Source of the DNA: Escherichia coli
Lineage (GTDB): Bacteria > Pseudomonadota > Gammaproteobacteria > Enterobacterales > Enterobacteriaceae
Direction: 5' to 3' (one strand)
Assembly (NCBI RefSeq): GCF_003019035.1
Contig: NZ_CP027447.1
DNA length: 64,000 bases
Of this stretch, positions 1,884 through 44,529 are shown in pieces (the stretch's first letter is position 1; every line of letters starts with the position of its first letter). A program made the translations under genes and the position numbers. The notes beneath the pieces were generated by a model. The model worked only from the letters and a program-made list of their open reading frames with translations. It did not search any database and was not told the origin of the DNA.

Positions 1884-2450
1884 TAGCTAACCAACGAAGC
1901 TAAGGTTGGTAATTAAGGAGTTCTCCACGGGTGAGGTGGAGTGCGTGCGCCGGACACGGGTGAGCATCCGGCACTGACAGTTTACTGAAAGGATATTTCC
2001 ATGAAAAGTCAGACCATAACGCGAAAGCGCACGGCGAGGTAGCTGGTTCATAGATAGCCTGTCGTTAAATTTTCGTCGACCGTGCGCTTCCGGTTGTGGC
2101 ACTCCGCGAAATGGCGCGGCGGTAAGTATGGCGGGGTTATTCCTTCCCCGTTGAGGACACCGGGTTGTCAGGTTGACCATACTCTTAAGTGACACCCCCG
2201 CTGCAACGCCCTCTGTTATCAATTTTCTGGTGACGTTTGGCGGTATCAGTTTTACTCCGTGACTGCTCTGCCGCCCTTTTTAAAGTGAATTTTGTGATGC
2301 GGTGAATGCGGCTAAGCGCACGCGGAACAGTTAAAACCAAAAACAGTGTTATGGGTGGATTCTCTGTATCCGGCGTTAATTGTTAACTGGTTAACGTCAC
2401 CTGGAGGCACAAGGCACCGCATCACAAAACTCATTGTTGAGGGCGCGATA

Positions 2451-6731: not shown

Positions 6732-6821
6732 TGGCGGAGAGAGGGGGATTTGAACCCCCGGTGGAGTTGCCCCCACTCCGGTTTTCGAGACCGGTCCGTT
6801 CAGCCGCTCCGGCATCTCTCC
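6732..6821 (-). tRNA. serU: tRNA-Ser (anticodon CGA)
   Basis: 90-nt tRNA with long variable arm; reverse complement reads GGAGAGATGCCGGAGCGG...GGTCTCGAAAACC...CTCTCCGCCA. Confidence 0.9.
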
Positions 6822-7812: not shown

Positions 7813-7888
7813 TCCTCTGTAGTTCAGTCGGTAGAACGGCGGACTGTTAATCCGTATGTCACTGGTTCGAGTCCAGTCAGAGGAGCCA
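7813..7888 (+). tRNA. asnT: tRNA-Asn (anticodon GUU)
   Basis: 76-nt tRNA TCCTCTGTAGTTCAGTCGGTAGAACGGCGGACTGTTAATCCG...GGAGCCA; identical copies at 33015, 34839, 37247. Confidence 0.95.
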
Positions 7889-33014: not shown

Positions 33015-33090
33015 TGGCTCCTCTGACTGGACTCGAACCAGTGACATACGGATTAACAGTCCGCCGTTCTACCGACTGAACTACAGAGGA
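33015..33090 (-). tRNA. asnW: tRNA-Asn (GUU)
   Basis: Exact reverse complement of the asnT sequence; no island attached. Confidence 0.95.
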
Positions 33091-34838: not shown

Positions 34839-34914
34839 TCCTCTGTAGTTCAGTCGGTAGAACGGCGGACTGTTAATCCGTATGTCACTGGTTCGAGTCC
34901 AGTCAGAGGAGCCA
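34839..34914 (+). tRNA. asnU: tRNA-Asn (GUU)
   Basis: Identical 76-nt sequence; followed by terminator hairpin aagcccgc / gcgggctt and T-run. Confidence 0.95.
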
Positions 34915-37246: not shown

Positions 37247-37322
37247 TCCTCTGTAGTTCAGTCGGTAGAACGGCGGACTGTTAATCCGTATGTCACTGGT
37301 TCGAGTCCAGTCAGAGGAGCCA
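37247..37322 (+). tRNA. asnV: tRNA-Asn (GUU)
   Basis: Identical 76-nt sequence; upstream leader identical to asnT; terminator hairpin follows. Confidence 0.95.
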
Positions 37323-38374: not shown

Positions 38375-39454
38375 TTAACTGTTCAAATCAGAAGTCGTAT
38401 TCCCCGGTAGAACAATATTACTGGCAGCAAGTTCGCCCATGTTGTTATATATCGCACAGGCAGCTTCGATGATGGGCATCGCCAGAGCTGCGCCACTCCC
38501 CTCACCTAAACGCATCTCCATATTGAGATAAGGCTCCAGCCCCAAATGCGACAGCGCAATACGCGCCCCTTTTTCTGCCGACAGGTGAGAAGGAATGAGA
38601 TACGGTTTGATCGCAGGAGACATCTGGCAGGCTGCGAGCGCAGCAGCATAAGAAAGAAATCCATCCAGCAACACGGGTAAACCGCAGGAAGCAGCGCCTA
38701 ACATCACGCCAGCCATTCCGACCAAATCAAATCCACCCACTTTTGCCAGAACATTAACGCCATCCTGCGGATTTGGCTGATTCAACGTAATCGCCCGGCG
38801 CACAACATCAATTTTATTAGCCAGTTTATCTGTCGGCAGGTTTGCGCCAATCCCAACCACTTCTTCAGGATCCCGGCCAGTGATTGTGCTGACTATTGCT
38901 GCTGCCGGTGTCGTGTTTGCCATCCCCAGTTCACCTACACCAAACAGCGTGACACCGTTTTTTGCCAGCTCCCGCGTATAACATATGACGTCCAAAAGCA
39001 ACTTTTCAGCCTGACGGCGACTCATTGCCGGAGCTGAAGCAATATTGCCGCTACCTCGTGCGACACGCATGTTGATAAGCCCGGGGATAGGCTCAGCAGT
39101 ATCAATACCAACATCAATTACGTGGACGTTAGCGCCCGCTTGTGCTGCCAGCACACACACGCCGGTTGTTCCGCGGGTCATATTTTCAGCCTGTATGGCT
39201 GTCACTTCTTTTGGAGAAATAGCGACCCCTTCCTCCCAGACGCCGTGATCGGCACACATAACCAGTATCGCTTTTTTGCCCACATGCGGTATGCCATTCA
39301 ACCCCGGCATTCCCGCCAGTTGTACGCCAAGCGCCTCCAGCTTTCCCAGGCTACCAACAGGTTTGAGTAACCCGTCAATATGCCGTTGTGCACGCGACAT
39401 AGCGGCAGGATCGATGGCTGGGATCGTATTCAGTAAATTGGCAAGTGTTTGCAT
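38375..39454 (-). CDS. cobT: Nicotinate-nucleotide--dimethylbenzimidazole phosphoribosyltransferase
   Basis: 359 aa; last gene of cobUST operon. Confidence 0.9.
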
Positions 39455-39465
39455 GTCACGTCTCT

Positions 39466-40209
39466 TTATAGCAGTGCCAGCAGGAAGACCAGTTCACCAA
39501 GCTCTATGGCTGCTCCCAGCGTATCGCCGGTTTGCCCGCCCAGCGTACGTTTGAGAAGCTGACCGAGGATGAAAATCGCCACCATCGTCACCACCATAGC
39601 AGCCACACCATGCATACCCGGCAATAATACGGCAGCAAAAATAGCGGCTAAGCCGAGTGTGACGCAGGTTTGTCGCCCATCAATTTTGCCAATGAACACA
39701 TTGCCAAGCCCTTCTTCCCGCGCATAACGATGACGATACATCAATAATGCGGCAGTCCCGCGGCTGACCGCACATGCTGCCGCCAGCGATGCAAGGATCG
39801 GTTCGCCACGCAGAGCCAACTCGCTTAACACCAGAATCTTTGCCAGTACCACAAAAATCAATGCCAGACCGCCGTGGGTGCCTAAACGGCTATCACGCAT
39901 GATTTCCAACATGCGATCGCGGCTACGTGCAGAAAATACGCCATCACAGGTATCAGCGAGGCCATCCAGGTGGAATCCCCCGGTCATCAGCGCCAGCACA
40001 AGTACGCTAAACAGTGCCGCCAGTGGTACGCCACACCATGCCTGCAGCACCATGAAGACCAGCCCGCTAATCGCGCCAAGCAATAATCCAATCAAAGGAA
40101 AAGTAATAATACCGCGAGAATAATGCTCGAAATCCAGTCCCTGGGACCAGCGACGCGGTACAGGCAGACGCGTAATAAATGAGAGCATCGCCCAAAATAA
40201 TTTACTCAT
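39466..40209 (-). CDS. cobS: Cobalamin (5'-phosphate) synthase
   Basis: 247-aa membrane protein; start overlaps cobU stop. Confidence 0.85.
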
Positions 40210-40751
40210 TTGATTTTTACTCCAATACCCGAAACCACCAGCCATACTTCATTTGCCGCAGCGGCCAACTGCTGGTTTACCCGCCCGGCAATATCACGAA
40301 AATGTCGTGCCAGACGACTCTCCGGCACAATCCCCATTCCCACTTCGTTAGTCACTAATACAACCTTTGCGGGGCAACGTTGGCAGGCAGCAATCAACGA
40401 CTGAATCTCAGCATTAATCGCCTGTTCCATCGCCTGATAATCCCATTCATCAGGGTCTTTATCGCCGCCATAATCAAACAACAGATTAGTCACCATTGTG
40501 GTAACGCATTCCAGCAGCACAGCCTCATTCGGGTTAATGTCTGCATGAATTAATTCATCAAGATGTTGCCAGCGCTCCACTGTGCGCCAGTGCGCCGGGC
40601 GGCCTTGCCGATGATGTTCTATCCGTGCAGCCATCTCATCATCAAGGATTTGCGAGGTAGCGATATACAGAACCTGTGAAGAGTCCCCAATAAGCGCCTC
40701 TGCGTGGCGACTCTTCCCGCTCCGTGCGCCCCCCGTCACCAAAATCATCAT
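40206..40751 (-). CDS. cobU: Adenosylcobinamide kinase / adenosylcobinamide-phosphate guanylyltransferase
   Basis: 181 aa; P-loop GGARSGKS. Confidence 0.9.
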
Positions 40752-40884
40752 ACCGACTCCTGATTCAAATGTATGATGGTATTCATTGAACAGAACAATG
40801 GATCCCCCACCGTTGCTGACCGCAAAACATTTACGCGATTAATACTGCGCGTAATATAATTAAAAATCCAGCATTCTCAATCCA

Positions 40885-41391
40885 TTACGAAAGAAGATGG
40901 CATTGCGGAATAGCCAGACTTCCTCGTGTTAACGTCCGACAAAATGCGTCATTGACAGCGGTTTCTCTGGCATGACAGATTTCATTAAGATAATGGATTA
41001 ATGCTACAGCCCCACCCGCCGGACCATTCAGCAAACGGGCATTGTGTTCTGTAATCAAAATTACCGTCGTTCCCTCAGAATGAGCGAGCCATTCTGGTAC
41101 GGATATCTCGCTTTCAGCTGCTATCAATAGCAGCACTGAATAATCGCTATACGCATCTGATAACGATTGCACAGGCCCACCGTCAAAAGGCTGGAAATCT
41201 TGCTGCCAGTCCTCACCAACAAAACAGGTTATTGGCAATATTTCCGCCAGATGTTTCGCCAGATCCACATCTCCAGATAAGAGGCAAAAAAGAGCTATCG
41301 ATTCGGGTTTTATCGTTTTCATGCCCCTCGCCCTCCACTTAATTTCCTGTAATGGCGGTCTGGTTGATAAGCCATGAAACAAGATTGCCAC
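40885..41391 (-). CDS. Hypothetical ORF (168 aa) between cob leader and cobU; possible vestige of deleted cbi genes
   Basis: Intact ORF at the position occupied by cbiA..cbiP in Salmonella; no P-loop or amidotransferase motif seen. Confidence 0.3.
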   Translation of the reverse strand: MAILFHGLSTRPPLQEIKWRARGMKTIKPESIALFCLLSGDVDLAKHLAEILPITCFVGEDWQQDFQPFDGGPVQSLSDAYSDYSVLLLIAAESEISVPEWLAHSEGTTVILITEHNARLLNGPAGGAVALIHYLNEICHARETAVNDAFCRTLTRGSLAIPQCHLLS

Positions 41392-41529
41392 ACCTTAAGT
41401 GCAGCCCTGGTGCCTGTCGGCACTGCGATGAAAGAACTAAATGATGCCGCCATACCCTGATCCTTTCAGGGTGGTAGGGGTATAAAGACGCGCCTGTACT
41501 CTACCGGACGCTTCCGGGCAACCCACTTC

Positions 41530-41700
41530 CCACCGAAGTTGTTGGTATTGACTGACTGGCTGGTCTTCTGGCTTAGCGTCATCCTCTCCCGACCTTCCCA
41601 ATCTCGCGATCAGTGGCATTTTCGGGTTTGTCAGCATTACAGCAGCGGGGGCTGCGAGGGATTTTCACCCTCTTCCCAGGCACAAATGTGCCACACCTGT
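41530..41700 (-). promoter_or_regulatory. Cobalamin (B12) riboswitch-like leader of the cob operon
   Basis: Minus strand reads ...GGGAAGAGGGTGAAAATCCCTCGCAGCCCCCGCTGCTGTAA...GGGAAGGTCGGGAGAGGATGACGCTAAGCCAGAAGACCAGCC (B12-box-like). Confidence 0.65.
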
Positions 41701-41806
41701 CAGCGTATGTTATGAGCTGATTTCACTTTTCCCATAACAGGGAAATAACGTTAATTATTCATTCCAGAGTTTATTTAAACCGTCCTCTTTTTTTGGGGCA
41801 TTTACT

Positions 41807-42721
41807 CTATACCGTTTCCATCGCCGCATTATCACTCACTTGCTGTCGATACACCTGCGGCGTAACCTGATAAGTCTGACGGAAAACTTTGCAAAAATAA
41901 CTTGTTTGCGAAAAACCTAAATTACGCGCAATGCTGGCGATGCTCCAGTCACTATGGCACAGTAACTCACGAGCGCTGGCCATCCGTTGTTGGTTTACCC
42001 ACGCATTAAACCCGATTCCATGGTATTTCTTAAATAACTTACTGAAATAATAAGGGCTTAGATAAACGTGCGAGGCGACATCTTCCAGACGCAAATCGTC
42101 TGATAAATGCGCATCAATATAACGTAAAGCTTTTTTCATTTTATTGTCGTGGGGACCAGGCGCACGAGTCTGGCGCAACGAATCTGACTGAGATTTGTTC
42201 TCTTTAATAACCACAAAATTGAGTTGTTTTTTTAGGCAATTTTCTACAATCAACTTCAACAAATCCGCAGAGGCCATAACTCTTGAGTAATCCATCTCAG
42301 GGACTTTGCGAAATTCATTAAGTAATTCGGGATCTGCCTGCCAGCAATCATCGACATTCAGAATATCGACCAAATCGACATCATCATTACGCAGACGAAC
42401 TTGCCCGCACAATACAAAACCAACTAAATGTCCGGCGATTACCAGTGGAATAGAGAAATCGGTTAATCCGGCATGACAGCGATAAATACAAGGCTGATCG
42501 GATTTAGAGGCTTCCAGGCCCCCACAACGATCGCTCATGCGACATCGAGTGCTTAGCTGAGGGTGTTGCCGCATCATCTGACAAAATGGAGTGAAGTTAA
42601 ACAGCTCGGAAATTTCATCGCCGTGAATATTGACCACGACAACCGCAAGGCTGGTCGCCTGCGCAAAATCCTGCGCGATTTTATTAATGAGTTCTGAATT
42701 AAGTGTCGCCGCAGAAATCAT
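41807..42721 (-). CDS. pocR: AraC-family activator of pdu/cob regulon
   Basis: 304 aa; C-terminal AraC HTH; between cob leader and pduF. Confidence 0.85.
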   Translation of the reverse strand: MISAATLNSELINKIAQDFAQATSLAVVVVNIHGDEISELFNFTPFCQMMRQHPQLSTRCRMSDRCGGLEASKSDQPCIYRCHAGLTDFSIPLVIAGHLVGFVLCGQVRLRNDDVDLVDILNVDDCWQADPELLNEFRKVPEMDYSRVMASADLLKLIVENCLKKQLNFVVIKENKSQSDSLRQTRAPGPHDNKMKKALRYIDAHLSDDLRLEDVASHVYLSPYYFSKLFKKYHGIGFNAWVNQQRMASARELLCHSDWSIASIARNLGFSQTSYFCKVFRQTYQVTPQVYRQQVSDNAAMETV

Positions 42722-42923
42722 GATAAAACCTCCCAGTTAATTTATTGTTATAGCAAAACAATTGTTTTACATTTAATCTTCACATCATCCTTGATGATTT
42801 ACTGACGAGAAGCACAAAGGACAATAACAAAAGCCTCCGTGAAGCGGGAGACTTTTTAATAAGTTCGGAAAGCAGATCACAAACAGTAAAAAAATAAACG
42901 TTTATAACTGCCAGATTATTTCG

Positions 42924-44244: not shown

Positions 44245-44529
44245 ATGCAACAAGAAGCGTTAGGAATGGTAGAAACCAAAGGCTTAACTGCCGCCATAGA
44301 GGCCGCGGACGCCATGGTGAAGTCGGCAAATGTTTTGCTGGTCGGCTACGAAAAAATAGGTTCCGGGCTGGTGACCGTCATCGTTCGTGGTGATGTCGGG
44401 GCGGTAAAAGCGGCAACAGACGCAGGTGCCGCAGCTGCGCGTAACGTCGGCGAAGTAAAAGCCGTGCACATTATTCCCCGCCCACATACCGATGTCGAAA
44501 AAATCTTACCAAAGGGAATTAACCCATGA
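44245..44529 (+). CDS. pduA: BMC-H shell protein
   Basis: 94 aa; canonical BMC domain [30 protein letters not shown]. Confidence 0.85.

Follow-up and report, generated by a model that had tools for sequence, protein, structure and literature searches.

We analysed a 64,000-nucleotide (nt) stretch of Escherichia coli DNA (contig NZ_CP027447.1 of RefSeq assembly GCF_003019035.1), hereafter the window, in which a cobalamin (vitamin B12) riboswitch leader and a short open reading frame (ORF) lie between the regulatory gene pocR and the B12 genes cobUST. The minus-strand order is pduF, pocR, riboswitch leader, ORF, cobU, cobS, cobT and ldtA, with the divergent pdu operon on the plus strand from position 44245. 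The cbiA–cbiP genes are not present between the riboswitch and cobU in either the ORFs or the annotation of the Prokaryotic Genome Annotation Pipeline (PGAP), a gene order that bears out what a preliminary description of this DNA had stated. The genes cobU, cobS and cobT serve the late, cobinamide-salvage steps in B12 assembly. The 1151 nt around the locus are 100% identical to E. coli strain CFSAN061771. In minus-strand order, the features are as follows.

41807..42721, minus strand: pocR, a 304-amino-acid ORF (pocR also in PGAP) for the AraC-type pdu/cob regulator, directly upstream of the leader
41716..41806, minus strand: shortened spacer between pocR and the aptamer, 91 nt
41541..41715, minus strand: adenosylcobalamin (AdoCbl) riboswitch aptamer, RF00174, 175 nt (cmscan)
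41437..41637, minus strand: spurious 66-amino-acid ORF overlapping the aptamer and the platform
41454..41540, minus strand: expression platform, ~87 nt, nearly invariant from Salmonella to E. coli
41319..41453, minus strand: upstream ORF (uORF) of 44 codons, with the start of cbiA (cbiA'), an unassignable middle and a weak match to the end of cbiF ('cbiF)
40987..41322, minus strand: CbiG-derived part of the short ORF (cbiG'), codons 1–112, assigned by homology to the CbiG N-terminus
40885..40986, minus strand: tail of cbiG', codons 113–145 (33 codons) and stop
40752..40884, minus strand: decayed 3' end of cbiP ('cbiP), a 133-nt untranslated spacer abutting cobU
40853..40880, minus strand: candidate sigma-70 promoter TTGAGA-16-TATATT (10/12 consensus), between the ORF stop and cobU
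40206–40751, minus strand: cobU (ORF and PGAP name)
39466–40209, minus strand: cobS (ORF and PGAP name)
38375–39454, minus strand: cobT (ORF and PGAP name)

The preliminary description had noted a cobalamin-riboswitch-like element downstream of pocR. The motifs it quoted are present, and an Infernal scan against all Rfam families (cmscan) matched the element to RF00174 (Cobalamin) over model positions 1–189 of 189, with 109.4 bits and E=1.7e-26 against a gathering threshold of 31.5 bits. The riboswitch RNA itself is not new, being already annotated in RefSeq: PGAP labels the same 175 nt ‘cobalamin riboswitch’ in the 100%-identical record NZ_CP042896. Orthologues in six other species, among them E. 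albertii, E. marmotae, E. fergusonii, Salmonella and Citrobacter, score 105–114 bits. The element lies on the same strand as, and 5' of, cbiA', cbiG' and cobUST, and is orthologous to the leaders of full cbi operons. The Salmonella enterica cob leader is found in the same place, directly downstream of pocR and the pdu divergon, and its aptamer, ~90-nt platform, ribosome-binding site (RBS) hairpin and ATG-GCG-GCA start are almost base-for-base the same, with 87 nt from aptamer to ATG here versus 97 nt in Salmonella. We conclude that this is a genuine B12 riboswitch, the counterpart of the classic Salmonella cob (cbiA) leader.

The platform ends in a 7-bp hairpin (41472–41454, ACCCUGA-AAGGA-UCAGGGU) whose loop carries the Shine–Dalgarno sequence AAGGA, 1 nt before the AUG. 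This RBS hairpin was found in both the minimum-free-energy and the centroid folds; its stem arms are invariant in 8 genomes and, lacking variation, yield no evidence of covariation. In an alignment that included five other Escherichia lineages, the aptamer, platform, RBS hairpin and ATGGCGGCA were almost invariant among E. coli, E. fergusonii, Salmonella and C. sedlakii. Across seven Escherichia loci, to which all p-distances and indel counts given here refer, p-distances were 0.055 for the aptamer and 0.054 for the platform, with 0 indels in each, whereas the flanking noncoding DNA diverged by ~20%. The sensor and RBS hairpin are thus under strong purifying selection. Because the leader is near-identical to that of Salmonella and so strongly conserved, we infer that the window riboswitch binds AdoCbl and alters downstream expression. 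The 66-amino-acid ORF overlapping it had already been judged spurious, and we agree: it overlaps the RF00174 match, its length is not conserved (equivalents in other lineages have 29, 45, 45, 45 and 56 amino acids) and it had no family match in NCBIfam.

The ORF downstream of the leader had been presented as an intact 168-amino-acid frame without recognisable motif. The frame (40885–41391) exists, opening at GTG 41391 by mechanical ORF calling, but we rejected this start in favour of ATG 41322, which gives 145 amino acids, because it is the start chosen by PGAP, similarity to CbiG begins at that methionine and a GGAGG lies 9 nt upstream. The product is also recognisable. It matches the NCBIfam CbiG model NF004463 with E=2.3e-20 (73.1 bits, profile positions 1–126 of 351), while falling short of the 546-bit equivalog cut-off; Pfam gave no match in the ORF, including to CbiG_N. 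BLASTP aligned it Met-to-Met with full-length CbiG at 36% identity over 125 residues (E=2e-20), tblastn against 62 enterobacterial cbiG genes gave 35–47% identity (E 1e-13 to 1e-24), with 42–47% for Citrobacter, Salmonella and Klebsiella CbiG, and an nhmmer cbiG profile matched the ORF at E=1e-26. Homology ends near CbiG residue 118–125, and cbiG' has an 8-residue deletion relative to CbiG. It is thus the N-terminal ~112–118 residues of CbiG, the cobalt-precorrin-5A hydrolase, that are homologous (36–47% identity) to cbiG', which has one third of the length of CbiG. By homology, cbiG' descends from cbiG and is collinear with it from the start codon. The ORF had been proposed to be either a fused remnant of the cbi deletion or a gene captured under riboswitch control. 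It is a remnant, although not the CbiA/CbiP fusion that we considered and rejected: it aligns to CbiG from codon 1, cbiP similarity begins only around the stop and cbiA persists as a separate uORF. The alternative of a captured gene finds no support, and nothing foreign was captured.

The final few codons and stop of cbiG' fall in cbiP-derived sequence, out of frame, with cbiP homology beginning 5–30 nt before the stop. The 133-nt spacer that follows aligned with the last ~150 nt of cbiP in DNA alignments with four full operons and was matched by an nhmmer profile of the cbiP 3' end (E=1.7e-5). It ends ...N-Q-E-S-V-stop over the cobU ATG, like intact operons. This remnant, ~140 nt in all, carries stops and indels in the cbiP frame and is decayed in every lineage (p-distance 0.100, 3 indels in 133 nt).

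At the old cbiA start, the uORF opens with ATGGCGGCA (Met-Ala-Ala), common to cbiA of Salmonella and Citrobacter; the Salmonella CbiA N-terminus is MAARHHAFILAGTGSG and the window uORF encodes MAASFSSFIAVPTGTR. Past the third codon, cbiA similarity is weak (p=0.04–0.8), and over its last 30 nt the uORF resembles the 3' end of cbiF (p=0.0025–0.04). Profiles of the cbiA 5' and cbiF 3' ends gave no nhmmer match, the uORF peptides retrieved nothing meaningful from NCBIfam, and the exact cbiA'/'cbiF junction could not be placed, cbiA similarity not being significant beyond ATGGCGGCA. The TGA stop of the uORF overlaps the cbiG' ATG as ATGA. Both the 44 codons and this overlap were found in all five non-fergusonii lineages examined, including E. 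albertii, E. marmotae, E. whittamii and two divergent lineages labelled ‘E. coli’. The E. fergusonii uORF is longer, at 49 codons, and runs to the native cbiF stop, which lies 20 nt inside cbiG', an overlap identical to the cbiF/cbiG overlap of intact operons. The distance from the cbiA ATG to the cbiG ATG, 131 nt and in E. fergusonii 130 nt, points to a single ancestral deletion fusing cbiA' to 'cbiF. The GGAGG 9 nt 5' of the cbiG' ATG is present in Escherichia except E. fergusonii and absent from the native junction. Judged from sequence, translational coupling from the uORF, which is unannotated at present, to cbiG' is most likely.

Within the uORF (41387–41405, minus strand), a weak hairpin is followed by a T-rich run, ...GCAATCTTTTTTCATGG; the run is longer (6–8 T) and better conserved in other Escherichia than in the window, where it reads TTGTTT. 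As an intrinsic terminator (41405–41387) we rejected this site, its stem being weak, its U-run displaced and the count of terminator-like sites not above chance, although it could be a translation-sensitive attenuator.

We examined the distribution of this arrangement in protein and genome collections. A profile search of 1.84 billion representative proteins returned 35 hits in total and, frameshift artefacts of full-length cbiG aside, no short form outside Escherichia. A one-genome-per-species scan likewise placed the short form in Escherichia only and full-length cbiG in Citrobacter, Salmonella, Klebsiella, Enterobacter, Kosakonia, Buttiauxella, Edwardsiella and others. The layout of the window recurs in E. 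coli, E. albertii, E. marmotae, E. whittamii, E. fergusonii and the two divergent ‘E. coli’-labelled lineages; the ORF is intact in seven divergent lineages at 50–77% identity, and it is the intact short form that prevails in E. albertii, E. marmotae, E. whittamii and E. fergusonii. The preliminary description had envisaged that a missing covariance-model match and out-of-frame cbi fragments not conserved between strains would speak against it; we found a strong covariance-model match, an in-frame cbiG alignment and conservation of the ORF across Escherichia species. Whereas the Salmonella leader drives cbiABCDETFGHJKLMNQOP-cobUST, its counterpart here precedes a uORF, a 145-amino-acid cbiG' and a dead cbiP end in place of 17 genes. 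The cbiA–cbiP block was lost through internal deletions that left the cbiA' uORF, cbiG' and 'cbiP, and the shared structure implies that the composite arose once, before the Escherichia species diverged.

Among 5426 complete E. coli genomes, 643 have the entire stretch. The K-12 type, which makes up about 88% of the set, no longer has pdu, pocR, the riboswitch, the uORF or the 5' part of cbiG'. Of the genomes without the entire stretch, most keep just the 3' ~170 nt of the ORF, beside insertion-sequence debris and annotated by PGAP as a truncated pseudogene. As well as this 3' fragment, K-12-type strains retain the spacer derived from cbiP, and they have the same cobU-cobS-cobT-ldtA genes in the same chromosomal place. 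The K-12 cobUST operon was reportedly treated by Lawrence and Roth in 1995 (J Bacteriol 177:6371).

Three genomes stood apart in these surveys. In the metagenome-assembled genome ‘Citrobacter sp. HRGM_Genome_0066’, one contig carries the E. coli short form at 100% identity and another a genuine full-length cbiG of Citrobacter; this bin probably mixes genomes or contains E. coli contamination. Escherichia sp. MOD1-EC7003 has a full-length-type cbiG (42% identity, residues 1–125) and a PocR 84% identical to that of E. coli, and is either assigned to the wrong genus or a relative of Escherichia in which the full operon was kept or regained. In the complete genome of Enterobacter sp. EA-1, the first 450 nt of the cbiG frame contain 8 stops, reflecting either an independent pseudogene or a sequencing frameshift.

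Two species retain the leader and the ORF where the downstream cob genes are damaged or lost. The E. albertii cobU is interrupted by stops in every frame, leaving ~520 nt of untranslatable dead gene after the ORF, and cobT is missing, yet the riboswitch (113 bits), uORF and ORF are intact. E. fergusonii is without cobUST but keeps the riboswitch (113 bits), the uORF and, as the common allele, a 156-amino-acid ORF.

Several further observations concern these two loci. In E. fergusonii the short ORF is followed by ldtA across a 229-nt gap without recognisable cobUST remnant, a choline-type glycyl-radical microcompartment cluster lies just beyond, and PocR is 88.7% identical to E. coli PocR, as distant as that of Salmonella. 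The cobS gene of E. albertii is intact and strongly constrained (ratio of nonsynonymous to synonymous divergence, omega, 0.02–0.035). Between E. albertii and E. coli, synonymous divergence (dS) is 0.9–1.4 for cobS and ldtA and 0.36–0.5 for pocR, pduF and cbiG', a contrast which suggests a recombination boundary within the dead cobU and exchange of the pdu-to-cbiG' segment between Escherichia species.

We next considered selection on the ORF. By the Nei–Gojobori method, whole-ORF omega is 0.30–0.52 at dS 0.31–0.54, with neighbouring genes at 0.03–0.08 (pocR), 0.12–0.20 (cobU), 0.01–0.04 (cobS) and 0.08–0.10 (cobT). We then split the ORF by region, using pairwise GY94 maximum likelihood and likelihood-ratio tests against omega=1. 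Codons 1–112 gave omega 0.25–0.51, with p=2e-3, 3e-2 and 1e-5 in three phylogenetically independent pairs, whereas the same region of functional CbiG gave 0.024 between Salmonella and Citrobacter; constraint is therefore relaxed 10–20-fold rather than abolished. The tail (omega 0.6–1.0) did not differ from 1, and neither did the uORF (0.3–1.3) in three of four pairs, the remaining pair giving p=6e-3. The derived residues WQQ and GGPxQSLSDA are fixed in every short form. Two E. coli alleles differ at 4 synonymous and 5 nonsynonymous sites, which speaks against strong selection, and four nearly identical E. albertii genomes show one nonsynonymous difference.

Indels provided a second measure. 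The p-distance was 0.131 for codons 1–112 (1 in-frame 3-nt indel), 0.205 for the tail (0 indels in 102 nt) and 0.150 for the uORF (0 indels in 131 nt), against 0.198 and 3 indels in 91 nt for the pocR–aptamer spacer. Together, the 569 translated nt contain 1 indel, in frame, versus 6 in 224 nt of flanking noncoding DNA, a rate at which 15 would be expected in the translated stretch (Poisson P about 4e-6); for the uORF and tail, 6.2 were expected and 0 seen (P about 0.002). In substitution simulations, the probability of remaining stop-free in five lineages was 0.002 for codons 1–112 at the neutral rate, 0.13 for the uORF and 0.18 for the tail. Measured as an unconstrained pseudogene, codons 1–112 did not behave as one, and the tail did so at the substitution level only. 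By these sequence measures, cbiG' is weakly constrained and intact across the genus Escherichia.

These results bear directly on whether cbiG' is a neutral scar, a pseudogene fragment that is open by chance behind a riboswitch conserved solely to regulate cobUST. Such a scar would accommodate an omega that is high next to real genes, the loss of CbiG motifs and domains, the decay of the ORF in one E. coli lineage and the pseudogene label that PGAP gives to the K-12-type fragment. It is hard to reconcile with omega significantly below 1 in three independent contrasts, with a neutral probability of about 0.002 that codons 1–112 stay stop-free in five lineages, with the indel deficit relative to flanking noncoding DNA, or with an ORF intact in seven divergent lineages at 50–77% identity while the E. 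albertii cobU next door and, in every lineage, the cbiP remnant have decayed. We consider a neutral scar quite improbable.

Upstream ORFs and translational coupling are known to relay the decisions of riboswitches or attenuators, for example in Rho-coupled riboswitches, and the arrangement described here shares with such systems a short ORF at the regulated RBS whose stop overlaps the next start (ATGA). It differs in that the uORF is not a dedicated leader peptide but a relic of what was the opening gene in an operon since deleted, and in that composition reveals no evident Rho loading site. We weighed the possibility that open frames in the uORF and cbiG' are maintained solely to let ribosomes cover ~570 nt at low B12 and pass the riboswitch decision on to cobUST, through protection from Rho-dependent termination or decay, the amino-acid sequence being irrelevant. 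The near-neutral omega of a uORF and tail that are nevertheless indel-free and fixed in length and stop position is what this predicts, and the conserved ATGA overlap and GGAGG fit it too. As is familiar from the cob and btuB leaders and from riboswitch–Rho coupling, the Salmonella-type leader acts on translation, and on general grounds such a leader needs some coupling to control distal genes. A relay does not, however, predict amino-acid constraint on codons 1–112. In a composition scan, G exceeded C almost throughout the mRNA, with no C-rich, G-poor stretch for Rho loading, and the ORF is separated from cobU by a 133-nt untranslated gap and the candidate promoter (40880–40853), which sits in the segment kept by K-12-type, riboswitch-less strains, although sites of this kind are no more numerous in the region than chance predicts. 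Furthermore, K-12-type strains have cobUST without the riboswitch, the uORF or the 5' part of cbiG', and the ORF is kept in E. albertii despite the ~520 nt of untranslatable cobU downstream and in E. fergusonii with no cob gene downstream. On balance we regard the relay as an unlikely full account, although it and a protein function do not exclude each other.

The surroundings of the aptamer raised a third alternative. An alignment showed that all Escherichia lack ~230 nt of the pocR–aptamer interval, a stretch with conserved sequence in Salmonella and Citrobacter, so that the spacer of ~300–330 nt in three comparison loci is reduced to 91 nt in the window; the missing DNA presumably held the native cob promoter region. 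Consensus scans, which we rate as weak evidence for promoters and terminators, found no promoter-like or terminator-like site on the minus strand of this spacer. The riboswitch might then serve pocR, as a 3'-untranslated-region element tuning the fate of pocR mRNA by B12, with the downstream ORFs incidental. Its location just 91 nt past the end of pocR and on that gene's strand, the lack of an intervening terminator, the deletion of the presumably promoter-containing ~230 nt throughout Escherichia, the empty scans and the persistence of the riboswitch in E. fergusonii without cobUST are all compatible with such a role. Against it, and apart from the weakness of consensus scans, conservation of the platform, RBS hairpin and cbiA ATG matches that of the aptamer, which indicates that selection sees control of downstream translation, and we know of no precedent in the cobalamin riboswitch family for a 3'-untranslated-region role on an upstream gene. 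A role confined to pocR is very improbable.

The explanation that best accommodates the locus as a whole combines an orthologue of the Salmonella leader, remnants of the cbi deletions, B12 control and an expressed cbiG' with a weakly selected function, and we assign it a probability of roughly 55%. In this model, the leader transcript would probably be made by read-through from pocR, given that the native promoter region is deleted and no terminator-like site follows pocR. With AdoCbl bound, initiation at the cbiA' AUG would be blocked, as in Salmonella, a step proposed by orthology. At low B12, the uORF would be translated and termination–reinitiation would carry ribosomes into cbiG', aided by the acquired GGAGG. 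Transcripts would run on into cobUST, which has the candidate proximal promoter of its own. A protein function would explain the amino-acid constraint, the fixed derived residues, the acquired Shine–Dalgarno sequence and the independence from cobU, and fits the predicted fold. That CbiG' is an expressed, B12-repressed, non-catalytic small protein with a weakly selected accessory function related to B12 or Pdu, and not a mere translated spacer, is the reading that we favour, at odds close to even.

The predicted structure of CbiG' is a compact alpha/beta fold, with a predicted local distance difference test (pLDDT) score of 81–88 for most of residues 10–120 and low scores in the tail. Its best meaningful structural neighbour is the CbiG homologue 3EEQ (probability 0.99, TM-score 0.52); beyond this, the fold search returned just generic Rossmann-like matches at E>0.01 and no functional lead. 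The model suggests, with odds about level either way, that CbiG' keeps the fold of the CbiG N-terminal region. A more specific proposal, which is possible but doubtful, is that cbiG' has been domesticated, an enzyme fragment stranded behind a riboswitch having become a B12-repressed, Escherichia-specific accessory protein, for instance a corrinoid-binding or hand-off factor for the Pdu diol dehydratase or for cobinamide salvage.

Several observations weigh against this interpretation. In a full-length relative, Pfam places CbiG_N at 54–134, CbiG_mid at 140–224 and CbiG_C at 238–354; cbiG' is without the end of CbiG_N (PVITTATD), all of CbiG_mid and the CobE-like CbiG_C, and the top conserved CbiG motifs (GATGxAVR..DPAVVVIDE, SGHxGGAN and PVITTATD) are altered or missing. 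The loss of these motifs and of two domains speaks against activity as a precorrin-5A hydrolase, and the product should not be named CbiG, nor ‘cobalamin biosynthesis protein’ without qualification. The omega of cbiG' is 10–20 times that of functional CbiG and well above its neighbours, and nonsynonymous divergence (dN) to Salmonella is 0.45–0.50 versus 0.08–0.13 for the neighbours. The tail and uORF, although free of indels, are near-neutral at the amino-acid level, and for them the stop-codon simulation is just modestly significant. Structure prediction is partly circular because its input alignment held real CbiG, and the B12 regulation of the locus is something we infer from the Salmonella orthologue. 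The distribution has its exceptions. Most E. coli are without the 5' half of the locus; in the pdu-positive E. coli lineage GCA_027276035.1, a frameshift ends the uORF after 19 codons, and a 9-nt deletion and a premature stop shorten cbiG' to 136 amino acids, an allele common to several complete genomes; and the cobUST loss in E. fergusonii is undatable, so that persistence of the ORF there may be recent history.

A full-text literature search found no account of the cbiG' remnant and none of a riboswitch ahead of cobUST in E. coli. The composite riboswitch–cbiA' uORF–cbiG'–'cbiP–cobUST, its single origin before the radiation of the genus and the selection on cbiG' therefore appear to be undescribed. 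Our results show that Escherichia did not lose de novo B12 synthesis wholesale, but through at least three internal deletions that left in place the pdu genes, pocR, cobUST and the riboswitch together with its start codon, which bears on the long-standing ‘loss and reacquisition’ account of enteric cob/pdu evolution. About 12% of complete E. coli genomes, pdu-positive strains included, have, before the salvage genes, a second B12 riboswitch besides that of btuB, which regulatory models based on K-12 miss. The locus also offers a natural case of a regulatory leader that has persisted after its operon was lost, and of an enzyme fragment that has lasted under apparent selection to dS about 0.4–2.

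The remaining features concern the neighbourhood and the rest of the window. PocR is 88–90% identical to its Salmonella and Citrobacter counterparts. The STnc230 small RNA has the same position in E. albertii, E. marmotae, E. fergusonii, Salmonella, Citrobacter and Klebsiella. The DicF, EFASI and C4 RNAs, each above its gathering threshold, suggest that the first quarter of the window contains prophage or mobile-element sequence. Four of the tRNA genes have identical scores (72.6 bits); a fifth, longer tRNA was found in the Rfam scan.

42782–42865, plus strand: STnc230 small RNA (76 bits), between pocR and pduF and antisense to both
2225–2276, plus strand: DicF RNA
11569–11697, minus strand: EFASI RNA
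13177–13264, minus strand: C4 antisense RNA (P1/P7-type immunity RNA family)
6735–6821, minus strand: fifth, longer tRNA
7813–7885, plus strand: tRNA gene
33018–33090, minus strand: tRNA gene
34839–34911, plus strand: tRNA gene
37247–37319, plus strand: tRNA gene

The two tRNAs nearest ldtA/nac/cbl are tRNA-Asn in the identical RefSeq record.

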